From Candidatus Doudnabacteria bacterium (lineage in GTDB: Bacteria; Patescibacteriota; Doudnabacteria; UBA920; O2-02-FULL-48-8): a stretch of DNA of 64,000 nucleotides. Shown here in pieces: positions 2,987 to 48,522 of the stretch. Each line of letters opens with the position of its first letter. Positions within the stretch are counted from its first letter, which is position 1. The position numbers and the translations under genes were made by a program. The notes beneath the pieces were generated by a model that was not told where the DNA came from, made no database searches, and worked only from the letters and a program-made list of their open reading frames with translations. The stretch is taken from the NCBI GenBank assembly GCA_025450105.1, contig JANWIA010000024.1, positions 229 to 64,228 on the forward strand, given 5' to 3'.

Positions 2987-4393
2987 TTGTTAATCCGCGA
3001 GTTCGACGGAAGAGAAAAATCTGATTTGAAAAAAAATTTAAAGCGGCTTTGGAAACTCGGGGCCGAAGAGTACAATACTCAATACTTCGACATCAACAAA
3101 GGTGGCGAACTGGTGGTGAAGGAAGGGCACTACCAATATAATATTATCAACCTCGTAAAAAAATACGGCACGCCGACCGAAGTCTTTTTTCCGTATATTT
3201 TAGAGAACCGTGTGCGCGACATGATTGATCTTTTTAACGCTTACATTAAGATTAGCGGTTATAAGGGTCGTTTTTATTACCATTACGTCATGAAGGTTAA
3301 CCAGAATAAAGAGTTTGTTTTGCCGGCAATTGCGGAGGGCGCTCATATTGAAGTCTCATCTGCTAATGAACTTTATCTGGTTAAACGCATGATTGAACAG
3401 GATAAGTTCAATCGGCGCATCCGAGTCACCTGCAATGGCCCAAAAACCGAGCAGTATATTCAGTTGATCGAAGAATTGCGCAGCAAAGGACTGATTGTAA
3501 TCCCAATTATCGAAAACCACGAAGAGCTGGAGCGACTGAAGAAATTTAAGGGCGAGGTTGGGGTCCGCGTAAATTTAGATATTAAAATCCAGGCACACTG
3601 GGATAAAAAATTCAATCACTTTGGCTTTTCGGAAGACGAATTGTTGCGCATCGGAAAAATTCGCAACCTTTCGATTTTGCATTATCATATTTCTACCCAA
3701 ATTGAAAAAATTGACGGCTTCGTGAAGCCTCTAAAGCGGGCCATTAATTTGTACGCTAAACTAAAAGAAAAAAATCCGGGACTGGATACAATTGATTTTG
3801 GCGGCGGTGTTGGTGTCCCGTACGAAAAAAAGCGAAAATTATATTCTCTGAAGAATTTAGTCAATCAAATGATTAAAGCGGCCAAGAAGGAATCGGACAA
3901 GTTGGGGATTAAACACCCGAATTTGATTTCGGAATGGGGAAGCTACGTCGCTGCTCCCGCGCAAATCAGTATTTTTAAGGTCCAGGCCGAAAAACCAATT
4001 ACGGGCAAGGCTGACACTAAATGGTATTTTATTGACGGAAGTTTTATCACCAATCTAACCGACACCTGGTCAGTGCGCCGCCAAAAGTGGGAAATTATTC
4101 CAGCTAACCATATGGGTGCTGGACGCATGCAAAAAGTTTGGCTGGCCGGATCAACCTGTGACAGTGATGACCGTTATACCAATAGCGGTAGTTATTTGAT
4201 GCTTCCAAAGTTTACGGAAGATGTGACTGAACTCTACTTAGTGGTCATGGATACTGGAGCTTATCAGGATGCGCTTGGGAATCATCATTGTTTGTTGTCG
4301 TCTCCGGCAAAGGTCATTTGCCAAAATGGAGAAGTGAAATTGGCACGCCGCCGCGAAACTGCAGATGAAATTGGGAAACAGTTTGGATGGTAA
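2987..4393 (+). CDS. PLP-dependent decarboxylase of the Orn/DAP/Arg decarboxylase family (probable arginine decarboxylase)
   Basis: The 468-aa length and sequence fit the fold-type III decarboxylase family. Placement upstream of the DHS-like and agmatinase genes fits a polyamine pathway. The TTG start is taken from the ORF track and the true start is uncertain. Confidence 0.6.
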   Translation: MLIREFDGREKSDLKKNLKRLWKLGAEEYNTQYFDINKGGELVVKEGHYQYNIINLVKKYGTPTEVFFPYILENRVRDMIDLFNAYIKISGYKGRFYYHYVMKVNQNKEFVLPAIAEGAHIEVSSANELYLVKRMIEQDKFNRRIRVTCNGPKTEQYIQLIEELRSKGLIVIPIIENHEELERLKKFKGEVGVRVNLDIKIQAHWDKKFNHFGFSEDELLRIGKIRNLSILHYHISTQIEKIDGFVKPLKRAINLYAKLKEKNPGLDTIDFGGGVGVPYEKKRKLYSLKNLVNQMIKAAKKESDKLGIKHPNLISEWGSYVAAPAQISIFKVQAEKPITGKADTKWYFIDGSFITNLTDTWSVRRQKWEIIPANHMGAGRMQKVWLAGSTCDSDDRYTNSGSYLMLPKFTEDVTELYLVVMDTGAYQDALGNHHCLLSSPAKVICQNGEVKLARRRETADEIGKQFGW

Positions 4394-4563: not shown

Positions 4564-5553
4564 ATGGGAACAATTAAGAAATTTATCAAACACAACTACC
4601 GTCACTTTAATTCCGCGGTTGTTGTTGATGCGTCCGAGGCCTATGTCGATTTTTTGGCCAAGGGCAACAAAATGATGGTGACATTGGCTGGTGCCATGAG
4701 CACTGCGGAGCTGGGATTAACTTTGGCGGAAATGATCCGCCAGGACAAAGTTCATGCAATTACTTGCACTGGAGCCAATTTAGAGGAAGATATTTTCAAT
4801 TTGGTGGCGCACAATCATTACGTGCGGGTGCCTCATTACCGACAATTATCGTCACAGGATGAGGTCGACTTGCTAAATAAAGGTTTGAACCGCGTTACGG
4901 ATACGACAATTCCGGAAGAAGAAGCTATGCGCAAAATTGAACGCCACATTATTAAATTATGGAAACGGGCTGATGATGCCGGCGAAAGATTTTTTCCGTA
5001 TGAATTCATGTACCAGATGATCCGCGAGAACATGCTCAAGGACGAAATGCAGATTGATCCAAAAGATTCCTGGCTCATTGCGGCCTGTGAAAAGAATTTG
5101 CCGATTTGGACCCCAGGCTGGGAAGATTCCACACTCGGAAATATTTTTGTGGCACTGACCAAAGGCCGTGGCAAAAATTATTACGGCGAAAATATCAAAA
5201 ATATTTCCACTGTTAAGACCGGCTTGGAAGCAATGTCGTTTTTGATTGACTGGTATGTGGAAACTTCTAAGAAATCGGAAATCGGATTCTACCAAATTGG
5301 CGGCGGCATTGCCGGTGATTTCCCGATTTGTGTAGTACCGCTTATCCAGCAAGACTTAAAGCAGAAAGTAAGATTGTGGGGATATTTCTGCCAGATTTCC
5401 GATTCCACAACTTCTTACGGTTCCTACTCCGGCGCCGTACCGAATGAAAAAATCACTTGGGGCAAGCTTGATGTTAACACTCCGCGCTTCGTTATTGAAT
5501 CTGATGCCACAATTGTTGCACCGTTAATGTTCGCATACATCTTGAATCAATAA
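4564..5553 (+). CDS. Deoxyhypusine synthase-like protein (homospermidine synthase-like)
   Basis: The sequence shows DHS family similarity throughout its 329 aa. It lies between a decarboxylase and agmatinase. Confidence 0.7.
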   Translation: MGTIKKFIKHNYRHFNSAVVVDASEAYVDFLAKGNKMMVTLAGAMSTAELGLTLAEMIRQDKVHAITCTGANLEEDIFNLVAHNHYVRVPHYRQLSSQDEVDLLNKGLNRVTDTTIPEEEAMRKIERHIIKLWKRADDAGERFFPYEFMYQMIRENMLKDEMQIDPKDSWLIAACEKNLPIWTPGWEDSTLGNIFVALTKGRGKNYYGENIKNISTVKTGLEAMSFLIDWYVETSKKSEIGFYQIGGGIAGDFPICVVPLIQQDLKQKVRLWGYFCQISDSTTSYGSYSGAVPNEKITWGKLDVNTPRFVIESDATIVAPLMFAYILNQ

Positions 5554-12252: not shown

Positions 12253-12561
12253 TTAGATTTTAGAAATAATGCTTGAATAACGGTCTGAGTTGTTTGGATT
12301 GTAATCTAGTCTAATATCAAAAGTATTGTTAGTTACTTCGATACAAGTAATTTCAGAGACATTAAATCTTCTCCAAGCGGGAATTGATCCAGTTTGGCTA
12401 TATCCTTCCGTTTGATAACCATCAAATAGTGTTTTTCCAGTAGAACTTACATAGACTATGTATGGGTCGATGGTTCGACTCAAAGAATTTTCGTAATTTA
12501 CAATAATACTTTTTTGGTTTTCTATTGCAAATTGAATCTCGTTCTCAAATTTGTAATTCAT
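12253..12561 (-). CDS. Small WYL-like domain protein (hypothetical)
   Basis: The 102-aa protein has a WYL-like pattern (DPYIVYV ... AWRRFNVSEITCIEV). An SD-like AAAGGAG lies upstream. Confidence 0.4.
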   Translation of the reverse strand: MNYKFENEIQFAIENQKSIIVNYENSLSRTIDPYIVYVSSTGKTLFDGYQTEGYSQTGSIPAWRRFNVSEITCIEVTNNTFDIRLDYNPNNSDRYSSIISKI

Positions 12562-12743
12562 AAATATTTTTACTCCTTTCTTTTTTAATTCTCGACCTTT
12601 GCTAATTTTAATTTAGGTTTCTCTCACTAACCTAACAAAATTATTTAAGATTGTGGATTATTAAGCCGATTTTAGCATTAACTAGCGAAAAAATCAAGCA
12701 CCTGCCGGCTAGATTACAGCATAAACCAACAACCCTGCCAAGT

Positions 12744-12772
12744 TGACACTCTATTGAACCCACGGTAACATA
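12744..12772 (+). promoter_or_regulatory. Candidate promoter TTGACA-N17-TAACAT in an approximately 430-nt non-coding stretch
   Basis: There is no downstream ORF before the 12987 terminator. It could drive a roughly 230-nt small RNA. Confidence 0.3.
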
Positions 12773-12986
12773 GCCCAAGTATTGAAATGGTATAATTACT
12801 ACATAAGTTCATTCAAACTGAATAGTGACAATCAAAGTATTGCTTTAACTCGGTGTCTTTTTATTGATATTTACTTACTTATTTAGTTCTCGCGTGTTCG
12901 ACAGGCCACAACAAATTACAGAAGTTTGGGATGATCAACACCCAAGAACGTAAAAAGTTAATACCAAATAAATAGACAAAAGAAAA

Positions 12987-13019
12987 GAGCCCCATCCAGT
13001 TGCTGGATGGGGCTCTTTT
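12987..13019. terminator. Bidirectional intrinsic terminator at the left edge of the GC-rich island
   Basis: A perfect hairpin AGAGCCCCATCCAG-ttgc-TGGATGGGGCTCT is flanked by A-runs and T-runs. Confidence 0.8.
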
Positions 13020-13040
13020 TGGTTTCGGCGGCACATCGAC

Positions 13041-13262
13041 TTAGGCTGCGGCTTTGAGGGCGACGCCGCAGCAGAAACAGAACTTGAAGCTTGGATCTGC
13101 GGCCCACACGTGGTGGAACTCTTCGCAGCGCTCCAGTGCCGAGAACTTGGGATCGACTTCGGTGCCGCACTCCTTACAGAAGCGGCACGAGATCGAGTCG
13201 TCCTTCCTCGGCTTCTCCACGCGTTGGTGCAGGGCTACGTTGGCGCAGGTTGTTGCTGGCAT
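13041..13262 (-). CDS. Small Cys/His-rich protein (73 aa), hypothetical
   Basis: An ATG start follows a GAAGGA SD. The protein contains CRFCKECGT ... CEEFHH ... CFCCG. It lies 18 nt downstream of the 52-aa ORF in a GC-rich context. Confidence 0.5.
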   Translation of the reverse strand: MPATTCANVALHQRVEKPRKDDSISCRFCKECGTEVDPKFSALERCEEFHHVWAADPSFKFCFCCGVALKAAA

Positions 13263-13280
13263 TGCATCCTTCTTTCCTTG

Positions 13281-13439
13281 TTACGCGGCGGTGATGCCAA
13301 GACGCTTGGCCTTCTCGAGGTTCTTGTCGTGGTCGTGGTTGGTGACGCACTCGCAGGTGCCCTTGAGGCAGGCTTTGAGCCGCGCTCGCCAAATGGCAAG
13401 CCTGAGTGTTTCCAGGTCGAGCTTCTTAAGATGGCGCAC
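13281..13439 (-). CDS. Small protein (52 aa, GTG start), hypothetical
   Basis: An AAGGAGG SD lies 8 nt upstream of GTG. The protein reads VRHLKKLDLETLRLAIWRARLKACLKGTCECVTNHDHDKNLEKAKRLGITAA. It is absent from the ATG-only ORF track. Confidence 0.5.
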   Translation of the reverse strand: MRHLKKLDLETLRLAIWRARLKACLKGTCECVTNHDHDKNLEKAKRLGITAA

Positions 13440-13463
13440 TTTTCTATCCTCCTTGAATGACGG

Positions 13464-13495
13464 ATTATACTAGCATTTACTGGCCAAATTGTCAA
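13464..13495 (-). promoter_or_regulatory. Strong sigma70-like promoter (TTGACA-N17-TGcTAGTAT/TATAAT) driving the minus-strand small-protein operon
   Basis: Read on the minus strand, the sequence is TTGACAatttggccagtaaatgcTAGTATAAT. It is followed by an SD and the GTG start. Confidence 0.65.
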
Positions 13496-13532
13496 TCCAA
13501 GCGTAGAATAGGGATGAAGCAAGAGGTGGGTT

Positions 13533-13754
13533 ATGCCAACAATGACGCTTCGTCTCGTTACGGAAAAAGGAGAAGAGACCATTCGGGAATATCGCTGCGA
13601 TTGGCCGGGTCTTTGCCAGGACCTTGCAGTGACCTCTGTCGGTCTCAGTGAATTCGGAACGCTGATAAGCTTTTGCAGTAACCATCTGAAGATGTATGCC
13701 GAGCAGGGGGAGTCAGAAGGAGGTTTGGGTGCCCGAGATTACTATGACGATTGA
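13533..13754 (+). CDS. Small protein P1 (73 aa), paralog of P2, with a C-x-C/C-x2-H metal-binding-like motif
   Basis: An SD-like AAGAGGTG lies 4 nt upstream. The protein contains YRCDWPGLC ... FCSNH. Confidence 0.5.
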   Translation: MPTMTLRLVTEKGEETIREYRCDWPGLCQDLAVTSVGLSEFGTLISFCSNHLKMYAEQGESEGGLGARDYYDD

Positions 13755-13914
13755 AGTTGATGGGCAAGTGGATCGGATAAGTAAATATTTCTGCGATTCG
13801 CGGAATTGTCTGGAAGAGGCGAGTGAACTACATGTAATTGCGAGCCTGCGGCAAAGGGTTTTTCTTTGCCCCAAACACGCGCTCGAGCTCTATCACAGAC
13901 AGATGAGAAAATGA
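13729..13914 (+). CDS. Small protein P2 (61 aa, GTG start), paralog of P1
   Basis: A GAAGGAGG SD lies 5 nt upstream of GTG. The protein contains YFCDSRNC ... LCPKH. It overlaps the end of P1 by 26 nt, consistent with translational coupling. Confidence 0.5.
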   Translation: MPEITMTIEVDGQVDRISKYFCDSRNCLEEASELHVIASLRQRVFLCPKHALELYHRQMRK

Positions 13915-13949
13915 GGCTCAGCCAGCAATGGTTGGGCCTTTCTCTTAGG

Positions 13950-14090
13950 CAAAATAAAAAGGCGACTACGGTCTTCTGTAGTCGCCCTCTCGTGGAGTTG
14001 TGTTAGTGTCCGATGTGCTTCGCTGGTTGCCCTTATGGGTCCATGAATTCGTACATAGGCTTTCCTCCTGTCCTGGATAAATGATAAACC
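13950..14090 (-). ncRNA. Compact promoter-to-terminator unit (about 130 nt) carrying only a 7-codon ORF (MYEFMDP); candidate small RNA or leader peptide
   Basis: The promoter is at 14081-14109. An AGGAGG SD lies 7 nt upstream of the ATG at 14056 and the stop is at 14033-14035. The terminator is at 13951-13986. Confidence 0.35.
13951..13986 (-). terminator. Intrinsic terminator (hairpin GGCGACTACGG/CTGTAGTCGCC plus T-run on the minus strand)
   Basis: On the minus strand the hairpin is followed by TTTTTATTTT. It also lies just after the P2 stop on the plus strand. Confidence 0.7.
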
Positions 14091-14109
14091 TATGTAATAA
14101 ATTTTGCAA
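14081..14109 (-). promoter_or_regulatory. Sigma70-like promoter TTGCAA-N17-TATCAT
   Basis: Read on the minus strand, the sequence is TTGCAAaatttattacataggttTATCAT. Confidence 0.5.
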
Positions 14110-14120
14110 AAGCTCATTTT

Positions 14121-14190
14121 GTCATTGCGAGGAGCGGAGCGACGTGGCAATCTTCTAGAATAAGATTGCTTCGCTTCGCTCGCAATGACA
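14121..14190. repeat. Imperfect 70-nt palindrome built from two inverted copies of the motif GTCATTGCGAG...GCAATCTT
   Basis: The outer 11-bp arms are GTCATTGCGAG and CTCGCAATGAC. The inner arms are GCAATCTT and AAGATTGC. The motif recurs at 20963-20995. Confidence 0.6.
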
Positions 14191-14207
14191 GGGTAAGCAA
14201 AGTAAAA

Positions 14208-14237
14208 AGGGTCTCACCGTGTGGTGGACCCTTTTTT
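14208..14237 (-). terminator. Intrinsic terminator (GGGTC...GACCC hairpin plus T-run) overlapping the stop of the Zn-ribbon gene
   Basis: The sequence reads AAAAAGGGTCtcaccgtgtggtGGACCCTTTTTT. It is bidirectional. Confidence 0.7.
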
Positions 14238-14375
14238 GGCAGCAGCCAGTTCTTTGACTTCTGCCTTGTTCTTAAATTCCCGTTTGCATTTGCTGCACTG
14301 GACTGTGTTGTCCCAGAAGACAACCTCGCCGCCACATGTGGGGCAAGGTGTTTCGAGCCTGCCGTAATCATCCAT
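14214..14375 (-). CDS. Small zinc-ribbon protein (53 aa), hypothetical
   Basis: An AAGGAG SD lies 5 nt upstream of ATG. The protein reads MDDYGRLETPCPTCGGEVVFWDNTVQCSKCKREF and so on. Confidence 0.5.
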   Translation of the reverse strand: MDDYGRLETPCPTCGGEVVFWDNTVQCSKCKREFKNKAEVKELAAAKKGSTTR

Positions 14376-14384
14376 TTCTACTCC

Positions 14385-14564
14385 TTAACGAAAGATCGTG
14401 AATCGGGCGATTGCTAGGAACATGGTTCCAAAGATTAGTCCCGTTAGCAACCGCTGCCTGAAGCTTGAACAATCAAATTGCTTTTCGGCAATGTTCACAA
14501 CAAGCTGCCAGAGAAGCGCGTTCAGGCTTAGGAACAACAGCACACGAAGCGTTTCATCCGACAC
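14385..14564 (-). CDS. Small hydrophobic/membrane protein (59 aa, GTG start), hypothetical
   Basis: A GAGGTAGGTG SD is present. The stop overlaps the SD of the downstream Zn-ribbon gene. The protein is hydrophobic (LRVLLFLSLNALLWQLVV ... LLTGLIFGTMFLAIARF). Confidence 0.45.
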   Translation of the reverse strand: MSDETLRVLLFLSLNALLWQLVVNIAEKQFDCSSFRQRLLTGLIFGTMFLAIARFTIFR

Positions 14565-14578
14565 GATTCACCTACCTC

Positions 14579-14740
14579 TTACTTTATGGCTTGGTTGAGG
14601 GTTCTTGGTTTTTCCTTGTACCCTCCACAATCAACGCAGTCTTCACGTTTGCAGAGACGGATTGAGTTCGGGTTCTTTGGATCCAAGCGATAGTGGTCGC
14701 CTTCGGCGTGGCCGCATTCACAGTATTTCGCGAATTTCAA
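14579..14740 (-). CDS. Small zinc-ribbon protein (53 aa, TTG start), hypothetical
   Basis: An AAGGAGG SD lies 6 nt upstream of TTG. The protein reads MKFAKYCECGHAEGDHYRLD ... CKREDCVDCGGY. Confidence 0.45.
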   Translation of the reverse strand: MKFAKYCECGHAEGDHYRLDPKNPNSIRLCKREDCVDCGGYKEKPRTLNQAIK

Positions 14741-23328: not shown

Positions 23329-23372
23329 AACACCCCTAGGATCTTGACAAATGGGGTGTTTTTTGCTAGTAT
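23329..23372 (+). promoter_or_regulatory. Terminator hairpin (AACACCCC/GGGGTGTT plus T-run) with an embedded promoter TTGACA-N17-TAGTAT
   Basis: The -35 box lies in the hairpin loop. The promoter architecture matches that at 13464-13495. Confidence 0.6.
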
Positions 23373-23390
23373 TGGAGAAATTCAGAACCA

Positions 23391-23436
23391 CAGTATTGGC
23401 CGCAGTGTGTTTACAGTATTAGCCGCAGTGTGTTTA
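23391..23436 (+). repeat. Tandem 23-nt direct repeat (CAGTATTGGCCGCAGTGTGTTTA x2, one mismatch) in a 5' leader
   Basis: It lies immediately upstream of an AAGGAGG SD. Confidence 0.7.
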
Positions 23437-23448
23437 AGGAGGAGTATC

Positions 23449-23751
23449 TTGCACAATCGTCGCAATCGGCGCCGAGGTAGTCGAGCCCACTGGATCCACT
23501 GGGAAGTCATGTTTGATGGAGAGGCACACGAGACGTGGGCTCCAACCAAGAAGGCAGCCAAGAGCTTTGTGCGTCGGCGAGTTGCTGATGGCAAACGCCA
23601 CAAAATGTCGGACCTGTCACTGGACCAATTCACGGCGACTCCGACAGGGACGAAGCCGGGCACTCCCACTCCGTCGCGAGTCACCTCACCGGCAGCAATG
23701 CCAACCCCGGCCACTCGGCCGGTCGCGCAGCGCTTACTCTTTGAACTCTAA
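23449..23751 (+). CDS. Small basic protein with Pro/Thr-rich C-terminus (about 100 aa, TTG start), hypothetical, GC-rich
   Basis: An AAGGAGG SD lies 6 nt upstream of TTG. The protein reads HNRRNRRRGSRAHWIHWEVMFDGEAHETW ... TPTPSRVTSPAAMPTPATRP. Confidence 0.45.
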   Translation: MHNRRNRRRGSRAHWIHWEVMFDGEAHETWAPTKKAAKSFVRRRVADGKRHKMSDLSLDQFTATPTGTKPGTPTPSRVTSPAAMPTPATRPVAQRLLFEL

Positions 23752-23774
23752 AGGGTAAGCGCTGTTTTCTTTTG
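23729..23774 (+). terminator. Intrinsic terminator (9-bp stem AGCGCTTAC/GTAAGCGCT plus T-rich tract)
   Basis: The terminator overlaps the stop codon at 23749-23751. Confidence 0.65.
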
Positions 23775-23802
23775 TTTACGCAAAATATGGTACAATTAAT
23801 CC

Positions 23803-34312: not shown

Positions 34313-36388
34313 ATGCCTGAACTAAACGACATCACAGTCTTCGCCAAAACCAGCTTCCGTAACCGGGAAGTGGCTTTTGGCATCCGCAGAGATGACCGCC
34401 GCCGCCATATGTATGTAATTGGAAAAACTGGTATGGGTAAAACCACTCTAATCGAAAATATGGTTATCCAGGACATTCTCAATGGCGAGGGTGTAGCCTT
34501 TGCGGACCCGCACGGCGATTCCGTGGAAAAGGTTTTGAATTACATTCCGTCCAACCGCATCAACGATGTCATTTACTTTAATCCGGCCGATACAGATTTC
34601 CCAATTGCCTTTAATCCGTTAGAAGCGGTTGACCCAAAGTACAAGCATTTGGTGGCATCTGGTTTGATGGGCGTCTTTACCAAAATCTGGGCTGGGGTCT
34701 GGAGCCCGCGCATGGAATATATTTTGAATAACACCATCCTGGCGCTTTTGGATTCTCCGGGCAACACCATGCTTGGTATCGCCCGCATGCTAGTCAACAA
34801 AACTTACCGCAAAAAAATTGTCGATAATATTAAGGATCCGGTTGTCCGGTCTTTCTGGGTCGATGAATTCGCCAATTACAACGATAAGTTCCGAACCGAG
34901 GCTATTGCACCGATCCAAAACAAAGTCGGACAATTTTTGTCATCGGCGATTATCCGTAACATTGTCGGACAAACCAAGAGTACGATTGATTTACGCCAAA
35001 TTATGGATGAACGCAAAATCTTTTTGCTTAATTTATCCAAGGGCCGCATTGGCGAGGACAGTTCGGCGTTGCTCGGAGCCATGATCATCACCAAATTGCA
35101 ATTGGCAGCCATGAGCCGGGTCGATGTACCAGAAGAAGAACGCAAGGATTTTTATTTGTATGTCGACGAATTCCAAAATTTTGCTACGGAATCTTTTGCT
35201 AGTATTTTATCTGAAGCCCGTAAATACCGCTTGAATTTGATTGTCGCCCACCAATATATCAACCAGTTGAGCAACGATAAGAACACCGTTGTCCGCGATG
35301 CGATCTTTGGCAACGTCGGGACATTGATTGTTTTCCGCGTCGGGGCTGATGACGCCGAGTTTCTGGAAAAAGAATTTGAACCGACCTATACTTTGAACGA
35401 TTTACTGAACCTGACCAAGTTCAACATCTATTTAAAATTAATGATCAACGGTGTCGCCTCAACTCCTTTTTCAGCACTGACCTTGCCGCCAATTTCCCAA
35501 CCAACACAAAACGAGGACACCGTGGTTAAGGTTTCGCGGGAACGCTACGGTACCGCCCGGCAAATTGTCGAGGAAAAAATCCACAAGTGGTTAGGTTCCG
35601 AATACCATGCCGAAGCCGCCCGTGTGGAAAGCGATTCGGTTAACGAAGATGATGCCCAGGAAAGTTTCCGGTTCAAGGAGCAAGTAAAACTGGATACCAA
35701 AACCGGTATGCCGGTTGCTGAAACTTTGAACCGCCCGGACCAAGTTACACCTTCAGCTCCTATGGCAGCTCCAAAACCTGCAACTCCTGTGCCTCCAAAA
35801 CCTGCAACGCCGCCACCCGCAGCTCGACCAATAGTACCTCCACCAAAACCAGTACCGCCGCGGCCAGCACAGCCAAAGGTAGAACGACCCCCAGAACAAC
35901 GTCCACAACAACAACCCGAACGCCGACAGCTTGAACGGAGATTCAAGCAGTCTTCTTCGCATCCGCAACGCCGCAGCACGGACAGGCAAAGCGAAAGACC
36001 AAAGCCTAAATCCAATAATCCGGTATGGGAAACAGTCAATAAACTTTCCCAGGACAAGCTTAAAGAAAGTGTTGAAAAGACTAACAGTGCTTTAGAATCA
36101 ATTAGTAAAACCTTAGAAACCTCCTTAAAAACGGAATTAAAAAAGGTAGAGGTCAACAAACCGGAACCGTGGCCAGAACCGGAACAAAGGATTTGGGAAC
36201 CAACACCAGAGCCAATGCCAACTATCCCTGAAGAGCAAGAGCAGGATAATGATCCATTCCCACCCGGCGGCAATGCACAGAGTCATTTGACTATGATTCC
36301 GCATAAAGACCACCCAGGAATAGCAGATGCCCTAAAAAAGGTCCCTAAGTTATCAAAAGTAAAACCGGGCGACAAGATTAAACTCTAA
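34313..36388 (+). CDS. VirD4/TraD/FtsK-HerA-like P-loop ATPase with Pro-rich low-complexity C-terminal tail
   Basis: Walker A is IGKTGMGKTT and Walker B is FYLYVDEFQNF. The tail contains PAPKPATPVPPKPATPPPAARP repeats. Confidence 0.6.
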   Translation: MPELNDITVFAKTSFRNREVAFGIRRDDRRRHMYVIGKTGMGKTTLIENMVIQDILNGEGVAFADPHGDSVEKVLNYIPSNRINDVIYFNPADTDFPIAFNPLEAVDPKYKHLVASGLMGVFTKIWAGVWSPRMEYILNNTILALLDSPGNTMLGIARMLVNKTYRKKIVDNIKDPVVRSFWVDEFANYNDKFRTEAIAPIQNKVGQFLSSAIIRNIVGQTKSTIDLRQIMDERKIFLLNLSKGRIGEDSSALLGAMIITKLQLAAMSRVDVPEEERKDFYLYVDEFQNFATESFASILSEARKYRLNLIVAHQYINQLSNDKNTVVRDAIFGNVGTLIVFRVGADDAEFLEKEFEPTYTLNDLLNLTKFNIYLKLMINGVASTPFSALTLPPISQPTQNEDTVVKVSRERYGTARQIVEEKIHKWLGSEYHAEAARVESDSVNEDDAQESFRFKEQVKLDTKTGMPVAETLNRPDQVTPSAPMAAPKPATPVPPKPATPPPAARPIVPPPKPVPPRPAQPKVERPPEQRPQQQPERRQLERRFKQSSSHPQRRSTDRQSERPKPKSNNPVWETVNKLSQDKLKESVEKTNSALESISKTLETSLKTELKKVEVNKPEPWPEPEQRIWEPTPEPMPTIPEEQEQDNDPFPPGGNAQSHLTMIPHKDHPGIADALKKVPKLSKVKPGDKIKL

Positions 36389-37557: not shown

Positions 37558-37773
37558 ATGCCTGACCGGGTTTCGCGCAAGCCTCAACCGGTAAGCTATC
37601 CGGTTGGGCCAAGAGTCGGTTTCGGCGAACTGCTTCGGCAAGTGCCGACCACACCGACTGCAGAACAACTGCAAGAACTTTCCTGGGAAGGAAACGGACT
37701 CCCGCCCGCGCCCGGATACAAACACACTCCGGACGAGATGTTCGTCCTCCCAGTCCCGCGCCGGTTGATGTGA
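37558..37773 (+). CDS. Small Pro-rich protein (71 aa), hypothetical, GC-rich
   Basis: A GGGGGAA SD-like sequence lies 5 nt upstream. The gene sits between two strong terminators. Confidence 0.35.
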   Translation: MPDRVSRKPQPVSYPVGPRVGFGELLRQVPTTPTAEQLQELSWEGNGLPPAPGYKHTPDEMFVLPVPRRLM

Positions 37774-41523: not shown

Positions 41524-41598
41524 TGGGGAGTAGCCAAGCGGTAAGGCAACGGACTCTGAATCCGTCATTCGAAGGTTCGATCCCTTCCTCCCCAGCCA
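41524..41598 (+). tRNA. tRNA-Gln (anticodon CUG)
   Basis: The cloverleaf has a U1-A72 acceptor stem, anticodon loop CUCUGAA, T-loop TTCGATC and an encoded CCA. Confidence 0.8.
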
Positions 41599-46221: not shown

Positions 46222-46830
46222 TTATTTCAGAGGGACAAATGAAAATCCGGGGAACTCTGATGCCTCTACTTCGTCATCCGAAATCCGTAAAATTTGGTAT
46301 AAAGAATGCTGGATTGGAATTACCATGATACCACCGATTTTTAGTTGGGCAGTAAGGTCATGCGGCAAAGATTCTGCGGCAGCCGAAACCAGAACTCCAT
46401 CATAAGGCGCCTCGTTTGGATAGCCCAGGACTTCAGTGGCCAGTAACACATGTGTGTGTTTGTGCGGATATTTTTCGAGATTAATTTTTGTTAAATCCAA
46501 AATAGTTCGTTTGATTTCAGTGCCATAAATTTTTCCTTTAGGCCCAACACATTCTGCCAGAAGGGCAGTGGTCCAACCCGATCCGGTCCCAATATCTAGA
46601 ATTTTCTGATTTGGTTGTGGTTGAAGCAGCTCAAGCATAATGGCCACTGTTCGCGGTTGGGAGATAGTTGCACCGTCGACTAAAGGAAGTGGTTTATCCT
46701 CATAAGCAAAATCAATATGTTCTGGTAAAACAAAATCGCCTCGGTCAACGTTGAGAAAAGTTTCGATAATATGCGGGGTTTTTAGAACTTTTGTGCGGAT
46801 AAGTTCGGCAACCAATGCTTCATTGCTCAT
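46222..46830 (-). CDS. pcm: Protein-L-isoaspartate O-methyltransferase
   Basis: The sequence contains GTGSGWTTA. I took the start at MSNEALV, internal to the track ORF. Confidence 0.8.
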   Translation of the reverse strand: MSNEALVAELIRTKVLKTPHIIETFLNVDRGDFVLPEHIDFAYEDKPLPLVDGATISQPRTVAIMLELLQPQPNQKILDIGTGSGWTTALLAECVGPKGKIYGTEIKRTILDLTKINLEKYPHKHTHVLLATEVLGYPNEAPYDGVLVSAAAESLPHDLTAQLKIGGIMVIPIQHSLYQILRISDDEVEASEFPGFSFVPLK

Positions 46831-46903
46831 GCTATAAAAAATATCACAGTTGTATAAAAGGTCAATTGAACGGAAAAACAGAAGCGATAGGTGGAAATAA
46901 AAC

Positions 46904-46939
46904 AAGGGCTTAGTTAACGGGGTGCGTAACTAAGCCCTT
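46904..46939 (-). terminator. Intrinsic terminator (13-bp stem AAGGGCTTAGTTA/TAACTAAGCCCTT plus T-run on the minus strand)
   Basis: It terminates a minus-strand transcript coming from the GC-rich segment. Confidence 0.75.
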
Positions 46940-46978
46940 GAGCCACTTGTCTGTGTTATGACAAGCGGCTGCTTCTGT

Positions 46979-47155
46979 TCAATTTCTCTGATGCCGATTC
47001 CGGGCCGGATCGAAAGGCGGGGAATTGCTTCTGCGCCCGCGGCACACGCGTCGGATGCGGACCTGGTCGTCGGTGATCCTCGCGAAGAGGTTTCGTCGGG
47101 CCGAGAACAGGACCGGGTACCGGGCACTGTGGTTGCGAACGCAATCTGTTTGCAT
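46979..47155 (-). CDS. Small Arg-rich ORF (58 aa), hypothetical, GC-rich
   Basis: A GGAGGT SD lies 6 nt upstream of ATG. The protein has a very basic composition. Its coding status is uncertain. Confidence 0.3.
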   Translation of the reverse strand: MQTDCVRNHSARYPVLFSARRNLFARITDDQVRIRRVCRGRRSNSPPFDPARNRHQRN

Positions 47156-47208
47156 GCGTTTACCTCCGTACAGGTTTATCAGAAGCCGGAATGCCTCTGA
47201 TGGCTAAA

Positions 47209-47235
47209 ATTTAACACTTTTTTAGCAACAGGTCA
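47209..47235 (-). promoter_or_regulatory. Promoter TTGACC-N16-TGTTAAATT (minus strand)
   Basis: It is divergent from the plus-strand promoter at 47280-47308. Confidence 0.45.
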
Positions 47236-47279
47236 AAATGGCCAGGTTTTGTTTGTTATGAGTTATTTTAAGGCTTAAG

Positions 47280-47308
47280 ATTGACAAGATCCCAATATTT
47301 TGGTAATG
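47280..47308 (+). promoter_or_regulatory. Promoter TTGACA-N17-TAATGT
   Basis: The -35 box is consensus. Confidence 0.5.
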
Positions 47309-47314
47309 TTTGTA

Positions 47315-47823
47315 ATCATTGGCTGTGACTGGAACGCACAGTCGTGACGAGTCGGGACTGTCCCGCTCTGTATCCACGAACCACCGAACGTCCACTGTCC
47401 AGGAGGACATTTGAGGCCCATCCGAGACCACCCGTAATACGGTGACCCTGCTGAGGCCACCCGACACCGATCGTCACCAGATTCGCTCTAACCCAGCATT
47501 CTAGTGGAGGGCACCAGTGAAAAGCCCAGGACGCGCTCCGCCGTAATTAGGCAACGTTCTAGATCTGCGTGTGGGAACACTTTCATTCGACTGACTTTGA
47601 TATGCGACCAATGGCCGGTTCCTGGGTCAATGCATGACCGGGAACCGGCACAAACCTCAAGTAACAAAAGTTCATAATTCCTAACCATTAGGCAGACGCC
47701 GATCCCGCGAGTAGTCGCGACCGTGACGATGCGTAGTGGAGGGAAGGAAAGTGCGGTTATTACTGCACAGCTGGCCTTAACAGCATGAGCTTCGATGTCC
47801 TGCATCGGAGCTCATTTTTTATT
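47315..47823 (+). ncRNA. Candidate structured non-coding RNA (about 500 nt, GC-rich) bounded by a promoter and an intrinsic terminator
   Basis: No ORF with a start/SD context exceeds about 10 codons. Multiple local hairpins are present. The terminator at 47787-47813 is GAGCTTCGATG-tcctg-CATCGGAGCTC followed by ATTTTTTATT. Confidence 0.4.
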
Positions 47824-47881
47824 CCAAAAAAGTTTCCAAATAATATTCTTTTGCTATACTTTACTAAAGGAAATAAACACT

Positions 47882-48052
47882 ATGGATCAGCATTATGTGT
47901 GTACGGGGAGCTGCAATATGGTTTCGGACCACGAAAAAAATTGCGACTCCGAAGACTGCACCCACAAGGGTCAGCCCCTGGTTGCCTGCAGCTGCACTGA
48001 CGGTAACCATGACGAAGCTCACAAACGAGCTGGCACAGGCCTCGAGGTTTAG
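47882..48052 (+). CDS. Small Cys-rich protein (56 aa), hypothetical
   Basis: An AAAGGAA SD is present. The protein reads MDQHYVCTGSCNMVSDHEKNCDSEDCTHKGQPLVACSCTDGNHDEAH. Confidence 0.5.
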   Translation: MDQHYVCTGSCNMVSDHEKNCDSEDCTHKGQPLVACSCTDGNHDEAHKRAGTGLEV

Positions 48053-48093
48053 GTGCACCAAAAATAAAGGTCGATATTAAGGAAGGAAATTTT

Positions 48094-48522
48094 ATGGTAC
48101 CTGTAAATTATTGGGCGATTTTGGTTTGCGGTGTGGCAAGCATGGTTCTTGGATCAATCTGGTACGGTCCACTATTCGGCAAGACTTGGCAACAGTTAAT
48201 GGGCTGGGGCTCGGTCAGCGAAGAGCAAAAAAAGGCAATGATGGCAAAAATGAACCAGAGCTACATCCTGGCATTTTTGGGCGCTTTGGCCATGGCCTAT
48301 ATTCTTTCTCACTCTTTGACGTTCGCCCAGGCATATTTGAAATCTGAAGGCACGTCTGCCGCTTTTCAAACCGCATTTTGGAACTGGCTCGGTTTTATCG
48401 CTCCAGTGACATTGAGCACGATTTCATGGGAAGGTAAGTCTTGGAAGCTTTGGTTTTTGAACAACGCCTATTGGTTGATTTTGTTATTCATTATGGGTTT
48501 AATTTTGGTTAATTGGAAATAA
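48094..48522 (+). CDS. DUF1761-like membrane protein
   Basis: The 142-aa protein has 4 transmembrane segments. Confidence 0.55.
   Translation: MVPVNYWAILVCGVASMVLGSIWYGPLFGKTWQQLMGWGSVSEEQKKAMMAKMNQSYILAFLGALAMAYILSHSLTFAQAYLKSEGTSAAFQTAFWNWLGFIAPVTLSTISWEGKSWKLWFLNNAYWLILLFIMGLILVNWK

Follow-up and report, generated by a model that had tools for sequence, protein, structure and literature searches.

The locus examined here is an intergenic gap of ~1,050 nt within a 64,000-nt stretch of Candidatus Doudnabacteria DNA, which was analysed as a whole and is referred to below as the window. On one side the gap is bounded by a minus-strand gene for a PCMT methyltransferase (46222-46830) and on the other by a small Cys-rich ORF on the plus strand, which is followed by genes for a DUF1761 protein, a pterin-4a-carbinolamine dehydratase and an M32 carboxypeptidase. 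The gap contains a GC-rich islet of ~0.9 kb (46945-47825; 55-62% GC as against 43% in the genome) made up of two GC-rich blocks, and the AT-rich zone between these carries two divergent promoters (Table 1). The left block belongs to a unit with a small Arg-rich ORF on the minus strand (the left unit). The right half of the islet, the subject of this study, is characterized, as read from the sequence, by a promoter, a GC-rich non-coding body of ~470 nt and an intrinsic terminator (the right unit). The original prediction for this region was a TTGACA-N17-TAATGT promoter followed by about 500 nt of roughly 55% GC and an intrinsic terminator. All three elements were recovered: the promoter lies one base further along than had been proposed, the GC content of 47316-47780 is 0.55 compared with 0.43 window-wide, and the terminator was found with a strongly negative folding z-score (Table 1). 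These features support the reading of the right unit as a non-coding stretch between a predicted promoter and a predicted terminator.

Table 1. Features of the islet, of its neighbours and of the units compared with it (positions are those of the window; rows marked L021 give positions in that relative)
Feature	Position	Strand	Description	Measurement or basis
Left terminator	46898-46946	-	14-nt perfect arms, then T run	dG -22.4, z -5.3
Left block	46945-47200		57-62% GC
Left ORF	46979-47155	-	58 aa, Arg-rich; GGAGGT, 6 nt, ATG
Left promoter	47208-47236	-	TTGACC, 17 nt, TGt-TAAATT; divergent from right promoter
Right promoter	47281-47309	+	TTGACA, 17-nt spacer, TGg-TAATGT (extended -10)	direct sequence reading
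Right block	47310-47790		51-56% GC
Right body	47316-47784	+	GC-rich (55%), non-coding	composition, period-3, folding
Mini-ORF 1	47411-47437	+	AGGAGG, 4 nt, TTG, 8 codons (MRPIRDHP), TAA
Mini-ORF 2	47517-47546	+	TAGTGGAGGG, 6 nt, GTG, 9 codons (MKSPGRAPP), TAA
Internal hairpin	47614-47649	+	15-pair stem, AUGCA loop; inverted repeat	dG -26.9 kcal/mol, z -5.0
Mini-ORF 3	47751-47780	+	TAGTGGAGGG, 8 nt, GTG, 9 codons (MRLLLHSWP), TAA
Right terminator	47785-47823	+	14-pair stem (47785-47815), then TTTTTTATT	terminator scan; dG -20.7 kcal/mol, z -5.7
Promoter-like site of Cys-rich gene	47833-47860	+	TTTCCA, 16 nt, TGc-TATACT
Cys-rich small gene	47882-48052	+	56 aa, conserved; right border of islet	translation, period-3 z 5.6
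Islet A	13041-13439	-	two SD-led small ORFs: 52 aa and 73-aa zinc-ribbon-like protein; operon
Islet A promoter	13495-13467	-	TTGACA-N17-TGcTAGTAT
Islet B	23449-23751 (wider 23330-23780)		AAGGAGG-TTG, 100-aa basic Pro/Thr-rich ORF, terminator
Islet C	37558-37773 (to 37835)		60% GC; 71-aa orphan ORF directly after 36455-37546 gene
L021 promoter	4064-4092		TTGACA-N17-TGaTATTGT
L021 ORF	4124-4336		70 codons, AGGAGGG-led	GC3 0.89; period-3 z 9.2
L021 terminator	4745-4768		stem plus T8

The right promoter combines a perfect TTGACA (47281-47286) with a -10 hexamer (47304-47309) that is directly preceded by TGg and agrees with TATAAT at three of six positions; because of the latter, the site is absent from the list of the consensus scanner. 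A pattern count over the window gave six sites of the form TTGACA-N16-18-TANNNT where 1.95 are expected. Every one of the six is intergenic, and three of them, besides that of the right unit, precede other GC-rich or non-coding units. At the sequence level, the right unit displays what defines an sRNA-type gene: a promoter of its own, an intrinsic terminator and no translatable ORF. Like the bacterial intergenic sRNA genes with a sigma-70 promoter and a Rho-independent terminator, it is stand-alone, intergenic, ORF-less and insulated from its neighbours. It differs from them in its length of ~500 nt, most of these sRNAs measuring 50-300 nt, and in a GC content that looks foreign for its genome.

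The body of the right unit lacks a period-3 signal (z -1.3) and codon-position bias in any of its frames. The original prediction that no SD-led sense ORF exceeds about 10 codons was borne out, the longest having nine, and the sense ORFs of 31, 33 and 57 aa are all devoid of an SD. The SD-led frames are three mini-ORFs (Table 1), which all terminate in Pro-TAA; the second and third have the 10-mer TAGTGGAGGG in common, and the third ends 4 nt before the terminator stem. The sense strand contains three copies of GGAGG, where 0.55 would be expected (P 0.018), and the antisense strand none; each copy is followed, 4-8 nt downstream, by a start codon and then by a truncated frame. On the antisense strand, the frame 47805-47275 is broken by a single TAG; gene prediction for the source record had picked out its first 105 codons. 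This ORF, as had also been anticipated for the antisense frames, is preceded by neither an SD nor a promoter, and its codon-position composition is unbiased (chi-square p 0.84). HMMER against 1.84 billion protein representatives returned only the ORF itself and four repeat proteins; we discarded the latter as noise, since summed repeat scores inflate their significance. No match was obtained with Pfam for ten ORFs of the region, with PHROGs for the 105-aa antisense ORF or the small ORFs, or with NCBIfam for the region's small ORFs. A derivation of the right unit from a decayed CYTH or SIMPL gene of the operon seen in relatives was ruled out by tblastn. By start context, codon periodicity and homologues, the right unit does not behave as a protein-coding gene on either strand. 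One of the other GC-rich islets of the window, islet B, carries an apparently real SD-led gene of 100 codons that is nevertheless aperiodic; hence, missing periodicity in such islets is not absolute proof of non-coding status, although in the right unit the absence of a long SD-led frame also speaks for it.

Folding energies were expressed as z-scores relative to dinucleotide-preserving shuffles. The whole right unit scores -3.59 with its terminator included, a value that is mostly due to the terminator: without it, the body yields -1.4 on the plus strand and -1.2 on the minus strand. The 5' half, which is C-rich (C/G 1.4) and poorly structured, folds worse than the shuffles (z +1.25), and the score of the 3' half (z -2.4) is due to the single hairpin at 47614-47649. 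This is the sole internal hairpin of the unit that is clearly beyond chance, and a U.G pair within it favours the plus strand. In the MFE structure the 5' and 3' ends of the unit are paired together. The GC-rich coding islets of the same window, with z-scores of -1.1 to -2.1, are similar to the body. The folding energy of the body is not clearly below that of the shuffles, whereas that of a generic structured ncRNA would be. The region had been described as dense in local hairpins: the hairpins that were named do exist, the long one ~5 nt away from where it had been placed, but a hairpin density beyond chance was not borne out.

The search for known RNA families was comparably negative. With Rfam at gathering thresholds, only a tRNA-Gln was found in the whole window, and at E<=10 the segments 46700-48100 and 47305-47830 produced noise only (E 5.9-8), so that the Rfam and Infernal scan that the original prediction had recommended gave no family match. 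The Rfam 15 families covered, with the covariance-model gathering score as the criterion, include RNase P, tmRNA, SRP, 6S, OLE, GOLLD, ROOL, HEARO and raiA as well as riboswitches, ribozymes and introns. ARAGORN detected in the window only the tRNA-Gln (41524-41598) and no tmRNA. Recurrence of the element near other loci or in phage contigs, a further proposal, was likewise not observed. Within the window, the right unit has no paralogue, and a scan of diagonals tolerant to adenine changes found no second copy differing only at adenines, as would a DGR template repeat. The attributes of an IS or MITE, namely terminal inverted repeats, multiple copies and a transposase, were not found: there is no second copy in the window, and the inverted repeats at the ends of the islet are weak (80-86% over 14-15 nt). 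Beyond the window, blastn against phage and plasmid collections recovered no DNA similar to the right unit, two DNA patterns gave seed-only chance matches in viral contigs, codon-degenerate scans of viral contigs and JGI metagenomes with the pseudo-peptides of the unit found no relatives, and a contig search with the neighbouring protein as query returned only a distant Bacteroidota locus. These homologue searches depend on a called ORF or on nearly exact words of 8 residues or 14 bases and reach close relatives only; a diverged RNA family could therefore be missed, and the negative is not exhaustive.

The original prediction saw in the right unit a candidate large structured ncRNA, a claim that it made dependent on conservation outside this genome. 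With folding within chance, no Rfam match and no conservation found outside the contig by searches that reach close relatives only, the claim currently falls by that standard, and the label of large structured ncRNA is not supported. In comparison to the large ncRNAs (OLE, GOLLD, ROOL, HEARO and raiA, along with RNase P, tmRNA and 6S), the right unit is of comparable size and has a GC content above the genome average; it differs from them in having no covariance-model match at E<=10, a body that folds no better than shuffles and no homologues among the sequences searched.

The left unit has the same overall layout of promoter, GC-rich block and terminator, and also possesses a 5' hairpin. Its ORF has a GC3 of 0.71 and a borderline period-3 signal (z 2.0, p 0.05), and it is an orphan: no relative was found in families, by tblastn against phages and plasmids, in viral contigs or in JGI metagenomes. 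A direct repeat of 16 nt (14 of 16 identical) connects 47108-47123 in the left ORF with 47633-47648 in the 3' arm of the right unit's hairpin, so that the left mRNA and the right RNA might base-pair along these 16 nt; by our estimate, such a repeat is expected about 0.1-0.2 times by chance.

At the right border of the islet, 66 nt separate the right terminator from the ATG of the Cys-rich small gene, which has a promoter-like site of its own within this interval. Uncalled homologues of the gene were detected in two relatives, L003 (4223-4378) and L021 (4824-4976), in both upstream of CYTH-DUF1761. The resulting family of Cys/His-rich proteins of 50-56 aa shares the motif HYVC-x2-C ... C-x3-C-H-x-G ... 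C-x-C-T-D-x2-H, and its members are probably metal-binding and zinc-ribbon-like. The protein has no match in Pfam or NCBIfam, and neither tblastn of the ORF against phages and plasmids nor codon-degenerate scans of viral contigs and JGI metagenomes recovered a relative. The best named relatives of the neighbouring DUF1761 protein come from Candidatus Kaiserbacteria, Doudnabacteria and Parcubacteria/Patescibacteria, and the closest protein other than itself is 70% identical, from which it follows that the lineage, Patescibacteria-like, is poorly sampled.

The slot upstream of the Cys-rich gene differs between the relatives. In L003, the Cys-rich ORF starts 4 nt after the preceding gene, with neither an insert nor a leader. 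In L021, the slot upstream of the orthologous gene is occupied by a promoter, a GC-rich block of 645 nt (up to 71% GC) and a terminator, and this block contains an SD-led ORF of 70 codons (Table 1). Similarity of the right unit to the L021 block is not above that of shuffles at the nucleotide or the peptide level (p about 0.09), nor does the block resemble the left unit in its nucleotide or peptide sequence. The promoters of the right unit and L021, which align at 23 of 33 positions, are the sole aligning part, and this is suggestive at most. In the other DUF1761 contexts (L002, L004, L005, L020 and L022-L027), no Cys-rich gene was found beside a comparable unit. The tail that follows the 70-codon ORF in L021 (4338-4742) comprises 400 nt of GC-rich sequence with four long imperfect hairpins, whose arms measure 13-25 nt. 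Its MFE z-score is -6.9 on the plus strand and -5.75 on the minus strand, and it is structured much more convincingly than the right unit; Rfam gave no match to the L021 block or its tail.

Several further GC-rich islets, of 55-61% GC, are present in the window. Islet A is an operon of two small genes with a GC3 of 0.77-0.79 and a period-3 z of 10.4, which ends at a bidirectional terminator near 12990-13020. Islet B has a TTGACA-N17-TGcTAGTAT promoter, the -35 element of which lies inside the loop of the terminator of the upstream gene. The ORF of islet C is followed by two terminator-like hairpins. Taking islets A-C together with the left unit, a GC-rich block between promoter and terminator is therefore in this window usually a small orphan gene and not an RNA gene. 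The islet of the right unit resembles acquired islets with small ORFan genes in its GC anomaly (55-62% versus 43%), in that its presence or absence varies among relatives at the same locus, and in that its sister islets here carry small orphan ORFs, some of high GC3. It departs from them in that its right half has no ORF, and no donor, integrase, repeats or target-site duplication were identified.

Our tentatively favoured reading is that the right unit is an acquired, lineage-specific cassette transcript that lacks an intact ORF, rather than a conserved large structured RNA. It is favoured because the sister cassettes carry small ORFs while the right unit keeps only three mini-ORFs with an SD and a start codon, and because the slot is empty in L003 and in L021 contains a GC-rich cassette of unrelated sequence. 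Under this reading, strong promoters of the host type would drive the islet as two divergent units, the left ORF and the right unit. We infer that the latter is transcribed: RNA polymerase would start at about 47316 and stop at 47785-47823, yielding an RNA of ~505 nt that has no intact frame and contains the three mini-ORFs, a single stable hairpin and a 5' half that is rich in C and folds weakly. The base composition of the islet points to a foreign origin, although no donor was found, and the payload may either have lost a small ORF or never have had one, being in the first case a decayed small-gene cassette and in the second a stretch of donor DNA that does not code. Neither residual codon periodicity nor similarity of peptides connects the right unit with any ORF, that of L021 included, so it is the architecture only that suggests such a loss. 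The RNA would arise as a by-product or, at the most, be a regulatory RNA that is young and unconstrained. Against this reading, the intact promoter, the terminator and the 15-pair hairpin are equally expected of a functional RNA gene.

It is possible but doubtful that the right unit, ~500 nt long and equipped with a promoter and a terminator, is indeed a functional novel ncRNA, regulatory or structured, that works in trans or serves as a scaffold. A strong promoter and terminator around a non-coding body, the very stable internal hairpin with its strand-specific U.G pair, the joining of the 5' and 3' ends in the MFE structure and the strongly structured tail of the analogous L021 unit (z -6.9) are all as this would have it; however, the body and its 5' half fold no better than the coding islets or the shuffles, the searches made yielded no Rfam match, homologue or paralogue, it has no sequence in common with the L021 unit, and L003 has no such unit at all. 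A bolder extension of the cassette reading, which we consider unlikely, is that the slot upstream of the Cys-rich gene is a hypervariable hot spot for expressed cassettes in this Patescibacteria lineage, with the right unit as one allele. In that case, GC-rich payloads unrelated in sequence would be installed between a strong promoter of a conserved type and a terminator and subsequently expressed: in the window an Arg-rich ORF together with a non-coding RNA, in L021 an ORF with an array of hairpins, and in L003 nothing. Such payloads might stem from the capture of host or phage DNA, or the locus might be a conflict system based on RNA.

The remaining alternatives turn on translation. The right unit could serve as an mRNA for micropeptides, encoded by the mini-ORFs of 8-9 codons or the SD-less sense ORFs of 31, 33 or 57 codons; the enrichment of GGAGG on the sense strand, with a start codon 4-8 nt downstream of each copy, is in keeping with this, as is the likeness of two mini-ORFs in the 10-mer TAGTGGAGGG, the GTG start, the nine codons and the TAA. 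The lack of coding periodicity, the lack of an SD before the longer ORFs and our estimate that a 10-mer repeat is expected about 0.1 times by chance within 500 nt tell against it, and we regard it as very unlikely. It is highly improbable that the right unit acts on the Cys-rich/DUF1761 operon downstream as a long leader or attenuator, in which a ribosome finishing mini-ORF 3 (stop 47778-47780) would cover the 5' arm of the terminator and so allow read-through. In the sequence, mini-ORF 3 does have a good SD and does stop 4 nt before the terminator stem, so that, as in the leader-peptide attenuators of the pyrBI, trp and his type, a short SD-led ORF is found immediately before a terminator in front of an operon; Pro-TAA closes all three mini-ORFs, and the terminator is 66 nt away from the ATG of the Cys-rich gene. 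Unlike in those attenuators, however, the codon content of the mini-ORF has no link to the function of the operon, no antiterminator pairing was identified and the arrangement is not conserved at the orthologous gene: the L003 orthologue, 4 nt after its upstream gene, has no leader, and the unit upstream of the L021 gene is unrelated and bears a real 70-codon ORF. Moreover, the downstream gene owns a TG-extended promoter-like site past the terminator, and 470 nt is unusually long for a leader. A minus-strand protein gene in the frame 47805-47275 is close to refuted. By our calculation this frame has one stop in ~177 codons where ~7 are expected, and its ORF is already a called gene in a public collection; yet its ATG falls inside the loop of the plus-strand terminator, no SD or promoter precedes it, its codon positions are unbiased and the protein searches returned nothing beyond itself and repeat noise.

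If the reading as an acquired cassette is correct, the right unit would be an ordinary, orphan transcript from acquired DNA, and it would mainly warn against taking every GC-rich island in an AT-rich genome of an uncultivated bacterium for a structured RNA. It is modestly interesting that several GC-rich islets with near-identical strong promoters are found within 64 kb. Together with these, the different GC-rich payload in the same slot of L021 suggests that foreign high-GC DNA may have been captured and expressed repeatedly in this Patescibacteria lineage, and such a recurrent GC-rich cassette slot is a more intriguing thread than the right unit itself.

Further elements were observed elsewhere in the window. 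A second ORF-less unit on the plus strand (12743-13020), with TTGACA-N17-TAACAT at 12743-12771 followed by ~230 nt of AT-rich sequence, has no plus-strand ORF of at least 35 aa and ends at the bidirectional terminator near 12990-13020; it is another candidate sRNA. Around islet A extends a zone of ~2 kb of small ORFs (12560-14740), with more small CxxC ORFs at 13533-13754, 13696-13914, 14214-14375 and 14579-14740; all small ORFs of this zone are orphans with respect to Pfam and PHROGs. The 5' UTR of islet B contains two tandem copies of a 23-nt repeat, cagtattRgccgcagtgtgttta (23392-23437), which is possibly an operator. The most extreme C excess of the window (C/G up to 3) is seen on the plus strand at 35650-36050, within the gene 34313-36388, where it probably encodes a Pro-rich linker. 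Finally, a palindromic element of the type 'GTCATTGCGAG...GCGAAGC...CTCGCAATGAC' / 'GTCATTCTGAG...CAGGATGAC' is present at 14120-14195 of the window and at 3790-3850 of L021, and adjoins GC-rich islets in both genomes; we take it to be a repeat of many genomes of uncultivated bacteria that gives rise to spurious 'LRFARNDR'-like ORFs.
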